Below, piece by piece: positions 38,627 to 48,061 of a stretch of 64,000 bases of DNA. The translations under genes and the position numbers were made by a program. This stretch comes from an uncultured Candidatus Binatia bacterium (GTDB lineage Bacteria > Desulfobacterota > Binatia > Bin18). Position 1 is the stretch's first letter, and each line of letters opens with the position of its first letter. The DNA lies in NCBI GenBank assembly GCA_965200965.1, contig OZ241744.1:2592001-2656000 (forward strand), in the 5' to 3' direction. The notes under the pieces were generated by a model. The model was not told where the DNA came from and did no database searches. It saw only the letters and a list, made by a program, of their open reading frames with translations.

Positions 38627-38667
38627 CAGTCCTGTAGGTCGGCTTAGCCGGCAGGCGTAAGCCGGCG
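38627..38667 (+). repeat. GTAG-type REP-like hairpin, copy 1
   Basis: CAGTCCT GTAG GTCGGCTTAGCC GGCA GGCGTAAGCCGGC; 35/38 identical to the 42483 copy. Confidence 0.88.
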
Positions 38668-38673
38668 GCTCCG

Positions 38674-39627
38674 CTACTCCCTGTGTTCGGCGGATGAGCA
38701 GGGGTTTCGGCAGAGATCGGTTGCCCTGGCCGCGGCCTGGGTCCAGTCCTGCACTTTTCCGAATATGTCTGCATCAACATTGTCGCAGAAATCGACAAGT
38801 CGGCAGCGGTCAAACAGTAAACCGGCGTCAACTGACGCGCTGTGCCAACGATTCCGGGGCAAAGCCTCTGAAACGAAGAACAGCCGCACGGGGGTAAGAA
38901 CGGGGGATGATTGCAACCATTTTTTGCAGAATGAATCGGGCTGAAGCTGAGTCAGCGTGTCCTTGTAGTTGGTCCCTGTCTTACATTGGCCGAAAGCAAT
39001 GAGCTTCCCTGGCAGGCCGTCTGTGAAGGATTTCCACACAACAACATCCAATTTTCCATCTCTCTCGTTCGGCCGGGCCTTGTCTCGGTTCACAAAACCA
39101 TCCCCCTCTTTTATTCGTTTGCAAAGATCGTCAACCTTTCCCTGGAAGTCTCTTCCCTCCGCCGCGGTGCCGAAGACAAGGCTCTCGGCGCGGGCACCAA
39201 GGTACTCCCGGGCAACCTCTGCGGCAAGTTCCTCAAAGAGCAATGTCCCATCAATGCCAGCGTGACGCCGGTTGTCTTTCATGTTCAGCCGGGTTGCCAG
39301 GAGCAGATACCTGTAGATGACGTGCTTGCGGTTGTCCGCCTTTTGGGGGGCGCGAAGCGTATAGCCCTCTTGTGTCATCTTGAAGGGATAGCCCTCCCCG
39401 CAACCTTCCTTGCGCTGCTCAATTTCCCGATACGCCTCTTCAGCACCTCGGTCTGTTTCTTCCTCTTCCGGCACGCCGCGAGAATAGTCGTTTTCATCAA
39501 GCCGGCCGAGAAGCCCGGAGAGGGCAGTCATCGACATGCTGTTGCGCTGCCAGGCAAGCAACTCGGCATAGTCGGCCAGTTCATGTTCGGGCGCGCCAGC
39601 GGACGGTTGTCCGGGCCACTTGAACAT
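38674..39627 (-). CDS. Putative Mrr-like PD-(D/E)XK nuclease
   Basis: LLFEEL...DGKLDVVVW...FGQCKTG (D..QxK); coupled to the ParB-like gene (TAATG). Confidence 0.65.
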   Translation of the reverse strand: MFKWPGQPSAGAPEHELADYAELLAWQRNSMSMTALSGLLGRLDENDYSRGVPEEEETDRGAEEAYREIEQRKEGCGEGYPFKMTQEGYTLRAPQKADNRKHVIYRYLLLATRLNMKDNRRHAGIDGTLLFEELAAEVAREYLGARAESLVFGTAAEGRDFQGKVDDLCKRIKEGDGFVNRDKARPNERDGKLDVVVWKSFTDGLPGKLIAFGQCKTGTNYKDTLTQLQPDSFCKKWLQSSPVLTPVRLFFVSEALPRNRWHSASVDAGLLFDRCRLVDFCDNVDADIFGKVQDWTQAAARATDLCRNPCSSAEHRE

Positions 39628-40733
39628 TACCCGTCCTCCGAGACACGCTTTTTCCTTCTGCGAGGTCTCTGTTTGCGTTCCATCTCCTCGTAGAGGTCAT
39701 TCGCAATATCCGCTACCGTACCGGCAACCCTGAGCAGTCCCTCTGAACCGTCATAGCCGGTGGAAAGCAGACCACGCGCCTGCTCAAGCGATTGCTTTGC
39801 CGCATACAGCGCCTCATTGAAAACGGTAGACGACGGACGGCTCTTCTCGTGGGCGGCTGCAAGGCTGCTGCCTCTGCGCAGGGCGGCAAGCGCCTCGTCA
39901 TTGGCTACGACTGCGTCGAGTTGCCGGAGATGCGGATTCTGTGTCTCAATGACAGGAGGCACCTCCTCCTTCTTGCTGCCGTACATCCAACGGCAAAGCT
40001 CGCGGAGTTCTTCCTTTTTCCCGGCAGGAACCGGCTCTGGGTCCTCTTCAGTCTCCGGCCCTAAGCCAAGAAAGGCGCTGATGCCCTCGTAGCCGATCCC
40101 CGTGTACATATGGGAAAATGAAAAATGGTTTCTCCAGCGGTCTTTGCGGCTGAATACCTTCAGCTGTTCGGCTTGTTCAATGACCATCAAGCCACGGAAC
40201 AGCCTATGGACGGTCCTGTGGGTGTCACCAATCTGTGTTGCGATATCTTCGAGTGCAGCACCGAAATTTCTATGCACATCCGCGATGTATTGGGACTTGG
40301 CGTAGCTGCTCCATTTGGCCGGTCCATTAACATGTTTGAAGCCGAGATAGCGCCAAGTGTCTTCGCGGGTACCTGATATTGTGGGAAGCTCTCTCAGCGC
40401 TTCCCTGACATCTTTCGTGACGGGAGGAACGTCCGCTCTCAAGTCCTTGGCAATGGTGGGTTCGAGGAGAACTTTGACCGCGGCGAGACGACGGTTTCCC
40501 TCAATAACAATGTTTTTCCCCTTCTCCTGCGCCACGATCAGGGGTTCGTGGCGAAAGAATCCGCTGGCTGCGATCGACAGGACCAACTCGTTCACGTCCA
40601 TCGCGTCCCATAGAATCCGTATCACGTCTGCCTCTGTCGAGTTGCTGGTCAGATCAAACTCACGAAGCCGAGGGTTCTTGAGATCGAACACCAGTTCCGA
40701 GACGTTCATGGGGGTGATGTGCTCGGTCTTCAT
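39627..40733 (-). CDS. ParB/Srx N-terminal-domain protein
   Basis: FDLKNPRL, VIEGNRRLAAVK and HVNGPAKW; coupled to the MTase (ATGA). Confidence 0.8.
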   Translation of the reverse strand: MKTEHITPMNVSELVFDLKNPRLREFDLTSNSTEADVIRILWDAMDVNELVLSIAASGFFRHEPLIVAQEKGKNIVIEGNRRLAAVKVLLEPTIAKDLRADVPPVTKDVREALRELPTISGTREDTWRYLGFKHVNGPAKWSSYAKSQYIADVHRNFGAALEDIATQIGDTHRTVHRLFRGLMVIEQAEQLKVFSRKDRWRNHFSFSHMYTGIGYEGISAFLGLGPETEEDPEPVPAGKKEELRELCRWMYGSKKEEVPPVIETQNPHLRQLDAVVANDEALAALRRGSSLAAAHEKSRPSSTVFNEALYAAKQSLEQARGLLSTGYDGSEGLLRVAGTVADIANDLYEEMERKQRPRRRKKRVSEDG

Positions 40734-41605
40734 GGCATCTTCTTCCCTAAGTCGGTGCGGTCTGGCGGGCGGACATGCGGTGGCAGAATCACCAACTCCT
40801 GCGCGCGTTTCTTGTGCTGAAGGCTGTACCGAAGCGCAACATGTGAGAAGTCACAGGTCCGGTACAGGGCACGAATGAACGGGGCATCATCGTAGGACAT
40901 GATCCATTTCAGGCTGACCCGTCGCAGCATGGAGCGCGCAAGCTTTTGATGGTCGTCCCGGTTGGTATAGGAGTTCCGGTACAGGCGATTGCCGCCATTG
41001 GCGTAGTAGGGCGGGTCCAGATAGGCGAAGACCCGCCGGCGCGCCCGGCCACGCGGGAGAGCGTTGACCAGAAATGTGCGGGCGTCCTCGTTCGTGATAT
41101 GAATATGGTCACGTTGCAAGGCGATGGCTCGCACGCGCGCCGCAAGCGTCTCCCGATAAAACCGCGCGTCAAGCCGCCATTTCCCCGCTTGCGCATAGCC
41201 GCCAATCGGAGCGGAGCCGAAGAGGATGCCAGAGCGATTGCAGCGGTTCAGGTAGAACACAGAGAAGCCCACGGCAAAGGGCGTCCTGGCGTCGGCGCGT
41301 GTGCAGATATCCTGTTGCTTCCGCCACTCCGCCATGCTGAGTGGAACAGACAGGATCGCCTCGACGAAGCGTTCCGGCTCACCAAGAACCGCCTGCCAGA
41401 ACGCCGTGATACGCGGGTCTGCGTCGTTCAGACGCAGTCCAGAGACAATCCCCTCCCCCAACAGGCGGAGCGCGGCCCCTGCGCCCCCGGCAAACGGCTC
41501 ATAGTAAACGCAGCCGGACAGGTCGTTTGCCGCAATGACCTGCGCGAGGAACGGAGCCAGCGCGGCTTTGCCGCCTGGGTATCTGAGCGGGCTGGTGAGC
41601 GTCAT
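40730..41605 (-). CDS. Dam-like (D12 class, alpha) DNA adenine methyltransferase
   Basis: SPLRYPGGK, EPFAGGA, YLNR and YLDPPY; AGGAG SD. Confidence 0.95.
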   Translation of the reverse strand: MTLTSPLRYPGGKAALAPFLAQVIAANDLSGCVYYEPFAGGAGAALRLLGEGIVSGLRLNDADPRITAFWQAVLGEPERFVEAILSVPLSMAEWRKQQDICTRADARTPFAVGFSVFYLNRCNRSGILFGSAPIGGYAQAGKWRLDARFYRETLAARVRAIALQRDHIHITNEDARTFLVNALPRGRARRRVFAYLDPPYYANGGNRLYRNSYTNRDDHQKLARSMLRRVSLKWIMSYDDAPFIRALYRTCDFSHVALRYSLQHKKRAQELVILPPHVRPPDRTDLGKKMP

Positions 41606-41674
41606 GCTCCTCCTGTCTTCCTGCGCTGTCCATCACAGTCAGCAGAAAAAAGAACGCCCTCCGTGCAACGGCCC

Positions 41675-41708
41675 GGAGGGCGGATGAGCGAAGCGTCATC
41701 CGCCCTGC
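41675..41708 (+). repeat. GGAG-type REP-like hairpin, related copy
   Basis: GGAG GGCGGATGAGC GAA GCGTCATCCGCC; same architecture as the 38627 and 42483 copies. Confidence 0.8.
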
Positions 41709-41712
41709 TCCC

Positions 41713-41862: not shown

Positions 41863-42466
41863 GTGTTTCCTCCTGAGGGGTATAGGCCCAAAACTCTATC
41901 GTGCTGATCTCTCCAGCGGCGATGAGTACGCCTCTCTCATTGGTCGAAGACCAAGTACCAGTATCGTCAATATCATAGACCCACTGAATATACATATCGC
42001 GCTCGCCAGGAGTGGAAGAGGTGAAAGATTGCGAACCGTAGAATCCGGCGAGACAAGTCCCATCTCTGAGTGTCACACGAACCCATTGTTCTTCCCTACC
42101 GCCGAACTTCCAGTCCCAGGCGGTCGGTGTGGCATGAACAGGGTACAGACCGAACCAATTGAGGAGGCGGCGAACAAGGCCTTTCTGGATGGTGATCCCG
42201 AGGAACAGGCCGAAAACGACAGGGCCGACGAAGACCAGGCCGAACCAAGCCCACATTGATTGCTGTAGCAGTGCGGGATCAACAAAAGGGAGAACCAGAG
42301 CACCATAGACGACAGAAACAGTCAGGTAGGAAAGAAGCGCGGCGGTGTTGCTGTCGGACGGCCTTCTTGTGGTGATGAACTGCGACCTGACAAACAGGGC
42401 AATAAAGCCAGGGACGATGCAGGGCAGAATAAGGTAGAGACTATTGAGGGATAGCAATTTAGGCAC
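41855..42466 (-). CDS. DUF6338-like membrane protein
   Basis: IVPGFI, 3 TMs, PTAWDWKF, WVRVTL.DG and G.LI...EI..IEF. Confidence 0.75.
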   Translation of the reverse strand: MPKLLSLNSLYLILPCIVPGFIALFVRSQFITTRRPSDSNTAALLSYLTVSVVYGALVLPFVDPALLQQSMWAWFGLVFVGPVVFGLFLGITIQKGLVRRLLNWFGLYPVHATPTAWDWKFGGREEQWVRVTLRDGTCLAGFYGSQSFTSSTPGERDMYIQWVYDIDDTGTWSSTNERGVLIAAGEISTIEFWAYTPQEETHE

Positions 42467-42572
42467 GGGTCAATATCCCTTCCAGTCCTGTAGGTCGGCG
42501 TAGCCGCCGGGCGTAAGCCGACACAATGAAAAGACTCCCAGCCTGCTGATAGCTACCGGAGATGCACGGCAT
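42459..42572 (-). pseudogene. Possible truncated gene start (MPCISG...) running into the REP-like hairpin
   Basis: ATG overlaps the 3' end of the upstream ORF; after ~16 codons it enters the hairpin and ends at 37 aa. Confidence 0.4.
42483..42522 (+). repeat. GTAG-type REP-like hairpin, copy 2
   Basis: CAGTCCT GTAG GTCGGCGTAGCC GCCG GGCGTAAGCCGAC. Confidence 0.88.
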
Positions 42573-42893: not shown

Positions 42894-45800
42894 TCAGAGG
42901 CGGATGTCGGCGTCGGGGTGGCCGGCGGCCAGGGCGTTGAGCCAGGCGAGGCACAGCTCGCGCGAGCGATAGCGGCCCCAGGTGGCGGTTTCCTGGCGTT
43001 CGACGATGGGGAAGGTGGCGTAGATGTAGCGCACATCGTTGCGGTCGGTGAGGCCGTAGAGGTGGAAGAAGACGGCGTCGAGCTTGGCCCGCAGGTGCAG
43101 CCGGCGGTCTTCGTCCCACACGAACGGCGGCTTGACCCGCCCGGCGGCATCGACATGGCCGAGGTCGCGGGCAAACGGGGCCATGTCGTGGGCGGTGTAG
43201 GTCAGCTCCAGCACAGCTTCCCGCACAATCTCGCCGGCCGTCTTGGTACCGAAACGAACGGTGCCGTAGGTTGCGGGTGGCATGACGGGGAGCTGTTCAA
43301 CGATGTAGTAATTTAAACTGGTGCTATGAATTTTCTGACGGGTGATGAAGTCGAAGATCGTCGAGTTGAAGTTTGCTATCAGCAGCCATTCCGTGCGTTC
43401 GGAAGTTTCCGGGTCCGCTATGAGGAGCGGGGCTTTGTTCCCCAAACCGACAAAAGGGACTGCGGCAGCGATCATTGTTCAAGCGTCGCTGGCGCGGGCG
43501 ATATCCCTAAATGTGACTGTCCATCCCGATCGGTCCGGCAACTTCACTTTGTCGGCGAGAACCCAATACTGTGGTATAGGCATGAAATTCGGGTCAGCCT
43601 TCTTATCCGGTGCAATCCCCCCGCTCAGGGCCGGATTGTGAAGGTTTTGCTCGTTTACTTTGACCGACGCGGCTCGGTGGTCAAACTGATGAATCATCCG
43701 ACCGACATACAGCGGCACCCACTCCCCCGACGGGCTACGAAAGCGGTTGCCGCCGACCGGATACGCGCCTTCTTGCTCCTCCAGTTCTTCGAGCGTGCGG
43801 AACAGGTGGGAGTCGTTGGTCATGTCAAACATGCGGGTGTATTTTACCGGCCACGCCTTGAGCTCCCGGCCCGCTGAACGGTCTACCAGGACGGGCAGAC
43901 GGCGGTAGATGGCCGTGGTCAGTTCGGCGTCCCGGCGGGTGCGGAAGATGGGCGCTGTGCCGGTGTTGGGGTTGACGCTGGCGAAGTCCTCCGAAGCCAG
44001 CGGAAAGCGACGGGAGGCGTCGTTCAGTTCTGACACGTCCTGGAGGAAGAACGCGCACTGGGCCGGAGCGTCGGACGGCGAGCGTCCGGTGACAAAGGCG
44101 CAGAACTTGAACCGCGAGTCCACATCCGGGAAGAAGGGCGGCGCGGTGTAGCGCGTGCGGCGGTTCTCAAAATCGTACAGCGTACGCAGCCGGCCTTCGG
44201 TTGCGACTGAACGGAAGAAGGGGGCCGCGGTCTTGTCTGAGGCAATACCGGACGGGACGAGCAGGCCGACGAGGCCGTGTGGCTTGACCAGGGCCAGGGC
44301 GCGTTCGACAAACAGCGCGTACAGGTTCACATCGCCCCTGGACAGCAGGGGGTAGTCGCCGCCGGTCCGGGCCATGCGGGCGGTAGACTCGGCCCGGGCG
44401 TTGGCCCGCTCAAACGCGCCGGCCAGGGGGTCGCCGTCGTCCTGCAAGGCGGCGATCATGCGCTTGCGGTCGTCGGCGCGCTGGGCGTGGGCAATGGCCG
44501 GCCGGCGGGCCGCAAACCATTCGACCTGCTGGAGCTTGATGCGGTCCCAGGGCGGGTTGCCGATCACGGCGTCAAAGCCGCCCTGGCGTTCGGGCCGCTG
44601 CCAGTCTGACCACACCCCGGGAAAGGCGACCTGCCAGTGCAGAAATCCCTCTTCGGCGATGAGGTCCCGCGCGCGTGCCAGGAGGGCGGCAAAGCTGGCG
44701 CTGGCTGGGTGATCGTCCCGCGGCTCGGTGGCTTCAAGGGCGATCTGGATCGGGTCGCCAAGCCGGCCCTCAGTAAAGGCCCGGACCGCGGCCCGCTCGT
44801 CCTTGGCCTTCAGGTTCAGCCAGTCCAGGGCGTGGCTCAGGGACAGAAAGGATGCGAGCGGGGCGGTGCTGGCCTGCATGTCGTCGAAGATGTGGGCGGA
44901 GCGGTGGGCCTCGGCAATCTCGGCGTCGGTCAGGGCCTCAATCTCCTGCATCTGGGCGGCGGCCTGGGTGGCCTCGTGAAGTTTGGGGGTCAGGTACAGG
45001 GCACTCTCGCCGGTCATCACCCGGTCAATGCCCTGGGCCACCCAGCAGCCGAACAGGCTGTTGCCGCAGCGCAGATGATGGTCCAGGAAGCTGAGCGGTG
45101 CGCCGACGGTAAAGGTGTGCAGCCACAGCGACACCTTGGCCAACTCGACCGCCATCGGGTTTTTGTCTACCCCGTAGACGCAACGCTTGAGCACCATGCG
45201 GCGGACAATATGGCGGTCGTCCAGTTGCTCAGGGTCAATGCTCCAGCCGTGTTCCTCGGCGTTGGCGGTGATGCGCTGGCGAATGGCCTCAATGCGGTCG
45301 CCGAGCCGGCCCTCTTCAGACGGATCGTCCTCCTCGTCGGCCATGGCCGCAATCACCCGGTCGGCCAGATAGTCCACGAGGCTGACCAGAAAATGCCCGG
45401 AGCCCATCGCCGGGTCACATACCTTGAGCTCCAACAACTGCTCTGCGCTGCGGCCCCTGACCAGCGGCTCAAGCGTCTGGGTCAGGATCAGGTTGACGAG
45501 CGTATCCGGGGTGTAATAGCTGCCCGAGCCTTTGCGGGCGAACACATTGGGCCGGACGAGAATCTGCCCGCCGTCGCGCACAATCTCGTGCTCAAGCAGC
45601 CGCTCATAGATCGAGCCGAGCTGCTGCACACTCAGGTCACGGTAGTTGATGTAACGCCGGCCTTTCACCTTCCGGTCGAGGGCACGTTCACTCCTTTCAA
45701 ACGACAGGGTGTCAATCACATCGGCCATAAGCTGATCGCCCAGCCGGATACGGGCCAGCAGCGGCGTGTGCTCCCGGTCGAACAGCCCGCCGTTATAGGC

Positions 45801-46870: not shown

Positions 46871-48061
46871 TCAAGATACCGCCAGGCAGGTTTTTGCCTT
46901 GGGAAAACTCTTGACCGCTTCAAAGAAGGCCGTGTCTGTGATCTCTGTGGCCCACTCAAGCCGGAGACGAATGCGGTATTTTCCTGTCTCGCTTTTCTCG
47001 GCAGCAACAGCGCGCAGGCTAAGGAGCTGATTCACATCCCGGATGAGGGCTTTAGCAGGACTCTTGAGCTGAAAATAGTAACGGTCAACCGCATTGATCA
47101 GTTGGTCAAGCTCTAAGGAATCTCGCTCCAACAGCACTTCAAGAATTTTGAGTTGCCTCTTCGCCAGGACTCGTTTTCTGTCGCTTTCCAGGTGCTTGAA
47201 GAGATCGTGCATGACATTCCGGTACAGGGCTTTGGAGACATTGCGCCTGATTTCCCTGAAAAGTCGCTGGCATTGCCGGGCGATCCCTCTCAGGCCAAAG
47301 CGCAGGAAGGGGGTCAGATCGTGTGCCCTTTCTCTGGCCTCTTTGAGAGTTGCAAGATAGGTGTCTTTCTCGTCGTAGTAATAGTTTGACATGGCTATAA
47401 AAAGCTTGTCACGCCGGCCGGCCCGCTGAAGCATCAACGCCTCAACTGCCCGTGCTGTCCGACCATTTCCGTCAAGGAACGGATGCAGAGCGGCAAAGTG
47501 GTAATGCAGAGCGAGCGCCTGGATAAGAAGATCATACTCTGGAAATTCTTTCTCCACGGCTTTCATAAGACTCGCAAACACTCGCTCACACTCTGCACCT
47601 CCTTCTACTCCCCTATGCCGGAGTCGGCCAAACGTCACATTCTGGTCTTTTCCCCGGAGCACCCCTGGCGGGCAGTGATCATCATCCGCTCCAGTGACGA
47701 TCCGCTCGTGGATAGCCCGGATCAGATTGACGCTGATCGGCCTGTCGTCCGGGAGTGAGGCGATCCACTTATACGTCTTGACCGCAGCATGGGCCTGTCG
47801 CTGAGACCGGGTAAGTAATTGCTCTGGAGTTTCCTGCAATGCCTCTTCCAACTCATCTTCGGTAAAATCGGCCCCCTCAATACGCGAAGTCCCCGCAACT
47901 TCCCGCTTGAGTTGAATCGCCTGAAGTTCCTCCACCCAGCCGCGTTGGAGCGGCATTGTTCGCAGAGAAAGAACGCTGGCCTTGGCGTCTGTCAGAACAT
48001 CTACCAGCGCGCCGGCGTCGTAACACAGCCAGCGCGTCGGCCGCGTGTACAGAATAGCCAT
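46871..48061 (-). CDS. Fic family protein (class II) with probable C-terminal wHTH
   Basis: HPFLDGNGRTAR catalytic motif; TSRIEG inhibitory-helix motif. Confidence 0.93.
   Translation of the reverse strand: MAILYTRPTRWLCYDAGALVDVLTDAKASVLSLRTMPLQRGWVEELQAIQLKREVAGTSRIEGADFTEDELEEALQETPEQLLTRSQRQAHAAVKTYKWIASLPDDRPISVNLIRAIHERIVTGADDDHCPPGVLRGKDQNVTFGRLRHRGVEGGAECERVFASLMKAVEKEFPEYDLLIQALALHYHFAALHPFLDGNGRTARAVEALMLQRAGRRDKLFIAMSNYYYDEKDTYLATLKEARERAHDLTPFLRFGLRGIARQCQRLFREIRRNVSKALYRNVMHDLFKHLESDRKRVLAKRQLKILEVLLERDSLELDQLINAVDRYYFQLKSPAKALIRDVNQLLSLRAVAAEKSETGKYRIRLRLEWATEITDTAFFEAVKSFPKAKTCLAVS

Follow-up and report, generated by a model that had tools for sequence, protein, structure and literature searches.

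Genes of the Cassette

A 64,000-nucleotide stretch from an uncultured Candidatus Binatia bacterium (contig OZ241744.1), referred to here in its full length as the window, contains a cassette of three genes on the reverse strand. These encode a D12-family DNA methyltransferase (MTase; 291 residues, 41605–40730, −), a ParB-like protein (368 residues, 40733–39627, −), and a predicted nuclease (317 residues, 39627–38674, −), all delimited as open reading frames (ORFs) in the sequence. The first-pass annotation described the genes as translationally coupled, and the overlaps are present, as ATGA between the MTase and ParB-like genes (40733–40730) and as TAATG between the ParB-like and nuclease genes (39629–39625). 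A Shine-Dalgarno-like AGGAGGAG (41607–41614, −), read from the sequence, stands directly 5′ of the MTase ATG; no promoter or terminator above chance level was found at the cassette. The same three linked genes turn up together across numerous bacteria and phages, and they probably constitute an anti-phage system that has no name and is related to PD-lambda-5.

The MTase carries the motifs FAGGAG (residues 38–43) and DPPY (residues 197–200). It lies above the Pfam MethyltransfD12 cut-off (60 bits) and matches the PADLOC profile PD-Lambda-5_B (PDLC04018) with 316 bits (E 4e-95) over residues 3–285; its sequence matches class it as an alpha-class (D12 family) amino-methyltransferase of the PD-lambda-5B family. 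The earlier label of a D12 adenine MTase of the Dam type holds for D12 but not for Dam, as the protein falls below the NCBIfam dam cut-off (53 bits against 114.85). "Dam adenine" is unsafe because the closest solved structure by sequence, 7M6B (E 1e-19, residues 4–268; E 0.017 for DpnM), is an N4-cytosine MTase, and the modified base may be m6A or m4C. 7M6B is the enzyme M.CbeI, which belongs to the alpha class of N4-cytosine MTases and has a DPPY motif (PMC8616854). That motif is common to both enzymes, and the match is a distant one that fixes neither base nor site here.

When 31 D12 proteins are placed in a tree, two MTases of PD-lambda-5-like pairs nest among the MTases of the trio, and their presumed target-recognition stretch is the one found in those trio MTases. 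No target site emerged from the palindromes that the host genome avoids: GGCC has an observed/expected ratio (O/E) of 1.02, and the avoided 6-mers are not assignable to the MTase. The genome (G000) avoids some 6-base palindromes to an extreme degree (CACGTG, O/E 0.02; GGCGCC, 0.03; TACGTA, 0.03; GTGCAC, 0.12). Another D12-family MTase in it, at C1:1738220-1740095, adjoins a cysteine-rich gene, which we take to resemble a NotI-type restriction enzyme. The subfamily of this second MTase took the usual partner's place in trio loci L085 and L113.

The ParB-like protein contains the motifs D17-x-x-N-P-R22 and E78-G-N-R-R82, and these, like the D..QCK motif of the third protein, are as the first-pass annotation read them. 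A ParB/Srx nucleotide-binding domain is followed by a predicted helix-turn-helix (HTH) at about residues 161–190, a helical middle, and a C-terminal helical hairpin (residues 301–355); no HEPN domain was seen in the protein. It has no Pfam ParB-family match, and its NCBIfam parB_part match is below cut-off. Its structure model matches Noc, ParB, and KorB in Foldseek (E 2e-5 to 7e-4), and KorB superposes with a Z of 8.0 and a root-mean-square deviation (rmsd) of 4.8 for 137 aligned positions over residues 5–182. The modeled fold of the N-terminal domain, the GxRR motif, and the HTH behind them place the protein in the ParB/Srx superfamily. In an alignment of 83 ParB sequences, E78-R82 (EGNRR) is kept in 82–83, and N20-P21-R22, G131, H134, W141, K146, and the HTH glycine G169 are further conserved. 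The protein corresponds to PHROG phrog_3694, of unknown function. ParB-fold proteins bind CTP, ATP, or GTP, a choice that cannot so far be predicted from sequence (bioRxiv 2025.10.10.680097). The conserved EGNRR of the partner suggests nucleoside triphosphate (NTP) dependence, unlike the NTP-independent cleavage of Type II enzymes.

The third protein is predicted to be a nuclease with an N-terminal winged helix and a C-terminal Mrr-type PD-QxK core, and bears E132, D190-G-K-L-D194, and Q214-C-K216. Its structure model and that of the ParB-like protein rest on shallow alignments of 19 and 21 close sequences and reach mean confidence scores (predicted local distance difference test, pLDDT) of 61 and 69, respectively. 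The N-terminal domain (residues ~11–95) models as a winged helix with a middling score (Z 6.9, rmsd 2.5, 68 aligned); the core modeled poorly (pLDDT below 50 for residues 172–271), and only the winged helix matched structures. Residues 166–280, set against an alignment of 30 Mrr_cat domains, match over 103 columns (hhalign E 9.6e-5) with a score of 34, compared with a maximum of 17 across 20 column shuffles, and the D and QxK motifs fall in register. A single Mrr-like sequence used alone gave no match to the nuclease, whereas the 30-domain alignment did. The window's nuclease matches no Pfam, NCBIfam, or PADLOC family, and 114 members of its own family have no such match in common, although one of them matched Pfam Mrr_cat weakly (E 0.021). 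A profile search of solved structures returned nothing relevant to the nuclease, the matches being chance ones to antibody light chains, and the Atlas leads (HaeII/BsoBI) stand at 0.80–0.82 only.

Across the 114 nuclease sequences, D190, D194, Q214, G218, R274, and R276 are invariant. K216 is absent from distant clades, where a lysine sits three residues past the following aromatic residue. Among the 126 of 135 sequences that could be parsed, 100 have only K216, 20 have only the second lysine (two of these look mis-parsed), six have both, and none has neither. A further 45 viral nucleases show the second lysine in 39 cases, with the other six matched at another stretch. Retention of a lysine at one of two positions fits a putative catalytic role. 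Of 6,299 candidates, 1,426 are relatives of the nuclease; at 50% identity the family falls into 2,048 clusters, and its PHROG entries (phrog_14650/3984) are of unknown function.

Conservation of the Trio

The trio is intact in eight of nine GTDB loci, spread over four phyla (Binatota, Acidobacteriota, Spirochaetota, and Chloroflexota), and the gene neighborhood is conserved; a tenth GTDB match was a short chance match and was dropped. In metagenomes, within the best 80 of 556 loci, the nuclease gene follows the ParB-like gene in 75, and the remaining five stop within 300 bp at a contig edge; a D12 MTase lies upstream in 56 of the 80. These scans were seeded with the ParB-like protein and over-sample the window's clade, as no locus scan could be started from the broad nuclease alignment. 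The distribution of the cassette is patchy. In 300 further genomes from the phylum it does not occur at all, and one of seven congeners (G001) carries a close orthologue that is broken, with the MTase cut to a 54-residue remnant and two stop codons in the ParB-like gene. A pair that is toxic when its mark is missing would be expected to show such a coincidence of MTase loss with ParB stops, in what is one case in a metagenome-assembled genome.

A Fixed Pair with Exchangeable Methyltransferases

The ParB-like protein and the nuclease form the fixed core of the cassette, and the MTase beside them is replaceable between unrelated classes. A survey of 91 pair loci, from which near-duplicates were removed by hand, leaves 79 that can be scored once 12 at contig edges are set aside. 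At 76 of the 79, an MTase adjoins the pair or shares its operon: a D12 MTase upstream (57 loci), an N6_N4-family MTase downstream (nine), a convergent C5 MTase (four), or a convergent D12 MTase (three, one of them in an abutting PD-lambda-5-like pair). Two pairs lie behind a Type III res-mod operon, and one behind an Hma-like operon (helicase, DUF1156 MTase, and DUF499). The other three loci comprise two with no MTase nearby and one that is broken. An adjacent MTase is also present at all 45 further viral pair loci (37 C5 and eight D12, with many near-identical copies), in upstream, downstream, and convergent layouts. The pair loci, too, come from scans that started from ParB-like proteins, and the window's clade is over-represented among them. 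A solitary MTase linked to a nuclease gene, a feature of Type II restriction-modification (R-M), is thus seen at 76/79 and 45/45 loci.

The window's genome itself has a second ParB–nuclease pair (C1:2271823-2273996), with a four-base overlap with the mod stop of a Type III operon; it is 36% (ParB) and ~25% (nuclease) identical to the window's pair. Type III operon and pair together span C1:2264852-2273996 (L023:2853-11997), and the same layout is found in a congener (G007, L026). Identities to the window's proteins correlate at 0.93 between ParB and nuclease, compared with 0.73 and 0.68 with the MTase, over 44 loci that are not independent. Mapped onto the ParB tree, MTase class is clustered, with 19 changes compared with 29 after shuffling; the tree is a quick one in which long branches meet. 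The phages Wphi and 12474 have MTases that are 97.8% identical, with ParB-like proteins 34% and nucleases 26% identical.

The ParB module, and not the MTase, appears to be the hub of these arrangements. The same module is joined to HEPN in PD-lambda-5A and to an ABC ATPase in the PADLOC candidate PDC-M38A. At L027:6447-9265 (G005), the place of the Mrr-type gene behind a more distant ParB of the same kind is taken by an HNH nuclease gene. A candidate for a different ParB-containing defense locus lies at L028:5115-9084 (G005), where a small gene and an SNF2-like ORF are enclosed by two distant ParB-like genes, with MORC/HATPase-like genes opposite. At L112:493-5026, a full PD-lambda-5-like pair and a ParB–nuclease pair meet tail to tail, and both variants therefore abut one MTase. 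An apparent ParB–nuclease fusion at L105:640-2517 (one frame of more than 626 residues) was not used, as it comes from one cut metagenome contig and its junction resembles a lost stop.

Relation to Named Systems

The discoverers of PD-lambda-5 give it as "ParB/HEPN, methyltransferase", with two coding sequences (Vassallo et al. 2022, PMC9519451). It protects against phages, as tested in a strain from which mcrBC, hsdRMS, and mrr are absent, and the same paper discusses it as a compacted "RM+Abi" system (PMC9519451). It is a validated, broad anti-phage system, and no mechanism for it was given in the papers surveyed. Like the cassette, it has prophage-borne relatives, and the two have the MTase family and the ParB N-terminal domain in common. 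In PADLOC, which gives no system-level match, the PD-lambda-5A profiles match residues 9–167 of the ParB-like protein (E 1e-18). Across the family, such matches stay within the N-terminal 100–190 ParB residues; an A-like protein aligns over residues 9–150 only, whereas a control A-like protein scores 443 bits along its entire length. No histidine after H134 is conserved at the 95% level in the 83 ParB sequences. PD-lambda-5 consists of two genes with A profiles of ~430–610 positions, whereas the cassette has a ParB-like protein of 368 residues and a separate third gene, whose winged-helix PD-QxK product has no similarity to the A-like protein. Moreover, the ParB–nuclease pair also partners MTases outside the D12 family, unlike PD-lambda-5. 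Membership was rejected on the lack of a full-length A match and on the conserved third gene. Judged by its sequence, the cassette is an unnamed three-gene relative of PD-lambda-5, in which the HEPN domain is exchanged for a separate, predicted DNA-cutting subunit.

Other named systems resemble parts of the cassette. EcoKMrr combines a winged helix with a PD-QxK domain (PMC12707154), and this layout is common to Mrr-like nucleases and the window's predicted nuclease. Unlike Mrr, the family described here has a ParB partner in front of it at every locus and an MTase next to it at nearly every one, and its lysine shifts in distant clades. GmrSD, BrxU, and SspE (DUF262 and HNH) and Menshen NsnA similarly use a ParB-superfamily NTPase with a DNA-binding domain as a defense sensor. 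The DUF262 proteins carry DGQQR and HNH, whereas the cassette has a ParB-type EGNRR, a predicted PD-QxK core, two proteins, and a dedicated base MTase, and, compared with these systems and NsnA, lacks an ABC ATPase. The PADLOC matches listed for the window include none to GmrSD/BrxU/SspE or Menshen, and membership in GmrSD/BrxU (EGNRR and PD-QxK here, not DGQQR and HNH) and in Menshen was rejected on domain content. PDC-M38A matches the ParB family through its N-terminal half (~58–350), a longer stretch than in PD-lambda-5A, but its C-terminal half matches ABC-type ATPases and the window nuclease does not match it; PDC-M38 was likewise rejected on domain content. ParABS partition was rejected for want of parA among the coupled genes at the listed loci, parS sites not having been searched for.

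No named system in Pfam, NCBIfam, or PADLOC matches all three genes, and the family, large as it is, is invisible to these collections as a system. The trio is not described in the accessible portions of the Dnd, BREX, Menshen, P2-hotspot, embedded-defense, and R-M review literature, which exclude subscription papers. The first-pass annotation could name no system for the cassette; this stands for the trio as a whole, but a named relative exists in PD-lambda-5.

Phage and Escherichia coli Context

The form with a C5 MTase sits between the portal and replication genes of P2-like phages, including Wphi. These P2-like relatives occupy the Q–A variable site, where P2 has old and tin. The site has been described as a defense-system hotspot, and part of its cargo is partition-like (bioRxiv 2021.01.21.427644). 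The Wphi form is found at 99% identity or more in 104 of 5,426 complete E. coli genomes. E. coli W reportedly lacks hsdRMS, mcrBC, and mrr. Restriction of phage lambda was reported for this strain in 1967, according to the title of the report. The mechanism is testable at once because a near-identical copy is present in these 104 genomes and in Wphi of W, a safe laboratory strain.

Proposed Mechanism and Alternatives

The near-obligate MTase link, which holds regardless of gene order, points to a self-mark and hence to R-M. The cassette would then be a ParB-gated, restriction-modification-type anti-phage system, to which we assign a probability of roughly 0.55. The steps beyond gene content, we infer, would run as follows. 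The MTase would mark host DNA at a short site, and the ParB-like protein would bind DNA through its HTH. Nucleotide binding at EGNRR may serve as the switch, possibly with a CTP-type clamp by analogy with ParB, KorB, and Noc. The switched ParB-like protein would recruit or license the winged-helix nuclease to cut DNA that lacks the mark, making the restricting half a two-protein unit. The mark would be read on the DNA and not through contact with the MTase, and unrelated MTase classes could serve the same pair for that reason. The candidate R-M variant that the first-pass annotation proposed, in which a ParB-type subunit joins an Mrr-like nuclease, gains from the conserved trio, the Mrr_cat register, and the MTase linkage; the ParB-like partner may sense or activate, as that annotation also suggested.

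Several observations weigh against a ParB-gated R-M system. The fold of the nuclease core is argued from sequence and not from the model, and its winged helix with PD-QxK is the architecture of Mrr, a modification-dependent enzyme. Two intact pairs (L037 and L076) have no MTase within at least 3.3 kb on either side, and others are merely appended to two kinds of operon, Type III and Hma-like. The divergent Wphi and 12474 pairs with a near-identical MTase are unusual for matched R-M. The modified cytosines of T-even phages usually resist ordinary restriction. It is on T-even phages that PD-lambda-5 is strongest (PMC9519451).

Much of this evidence would suit a modification-dependent (Type IV) unit, GmrSD/BrxU-like but split over two proteins, whose Mrr-type cutter attacks modified phage DNA and whose MTase companion covers another phage class or sets the self state. 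The predicted nuclease equals EcoKMrr in architecture, and the GmrSD/BrxU layout joins a ParB-fold DUF262 to a nuclease, in genes frequently found within Hma and Type I loci. The appended pairs, the two that stand alone, and the service of near-identical MTases to very divergent pairs in Wphi and 12474 are consistent with such a unit. A stand-alone enzyme would need no MTase, however, and a dedicated one is kept at nearly all loci despite changes of order, strand, and class. The motif is also the EGNRR of ParB and not the DGQQR of DUF262, and in G001 the loss of the MTase coincides with stops in ParB; a Type IV unit is unlikely. Still less probable is a guard that acts by abortive infection, in which the ParB-like protein monitors the MTase, host methylation, or the nucleotide pool and frees the nuclease on the cell's own DNA, like PrrC or PARIS. 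The "RM+Abi" description of PD-lambda-5 agrees with a guard, as does the wiring of one ParB module to HEPN, to an ABC ATPase, and to an HNH neighbor (L027), and the pair's attachment to other R-M operons fits a backup role. If the MTase protein itself were guarded, however, the swapping of unrelated MTase classes would be hard to explain, and phage DNA is an equally possible target of the winged-helix nuclease. The patchy spread (0/300 in the phylum; one of seven congeners, broken) and the partition-like share of the P2 hotspot cargo would be compatible with a selfish addiction cassette of little anti-phage value or with a plasmid or prophage partition or regulatory module. This is very improbable, given that no ParA is found among the coupled genes at the listed loci, that the MTase family and ParB domain are common to the validated defense system PD-lambda-5, and that the cassette adjoins a Type IIG R-M gene, a Fic gene, and a PDC-M24B-like gene.

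A more specific version of ParB-gated R-M is tentative at best. The cassette would represent R-M of a new type, in which a ParB-type, nucleotide-switched sliding clamp finds unmarked DNA without a helicase motor and licenses a separate Mrr-type nuclease, m6A, m4C, and m5C MTases would be interchangeable self-marks, and the Wphi copy would be the cause of the lambda restriction reported in 1967 for E. coli W. If the ParB-like protein is indeed a nucleotide-gated clamp in self/non-self discrimination, the ParB switch extends from chromosome segregation to restriction.

Surroundings of the Cassette

The repeats that the first-pass annotation placed at the ends of the cassette are real. A palindromic repeat, presumably of the repetitive extragenic palindromic (REP) type, lies directly after the nuclease stop (38627–38664), with 16 matches genome-wide and a second copy at 42483–42520 (92%). 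A second REP-like hairpin lies upstream of the MTase gene (41677–41709), with 30 matches. Neither family has a match in 1 Mb of shuffled sequence. The repeats are not specific to the cassette, because both belong to families dispersed over the genome.

The cassette stretch has a GC content of 54–60% (65% in one bin), compared with 61–69% to its left. It is part of an island that, by Pfam and PADLOC, also contains a Type IIG R-M gene, a Fic gene, a DUF6338 gene, and a DUF1828/PDC-M24B-like gene. The Type IIG restriction-methylase gene (46874–42894, −; 1131 residues) has an in-frame TGA at 43481–43479, past which a 193-residue ORF resumes three bases on with the frame unchanged. The SoFic-like Fic gene is at 48061–46871 (−), and the gene for a DUF6338 membrane protein at 42466–41855 (−). 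A gene for a 154-residue unknown protein (38586–38122, −) overlaps the DUF1828/PDC-M24B-like gene (38153–37353, −), and a second copy of this pair lies behind an ATPase gene at C1:2223846-2224814.

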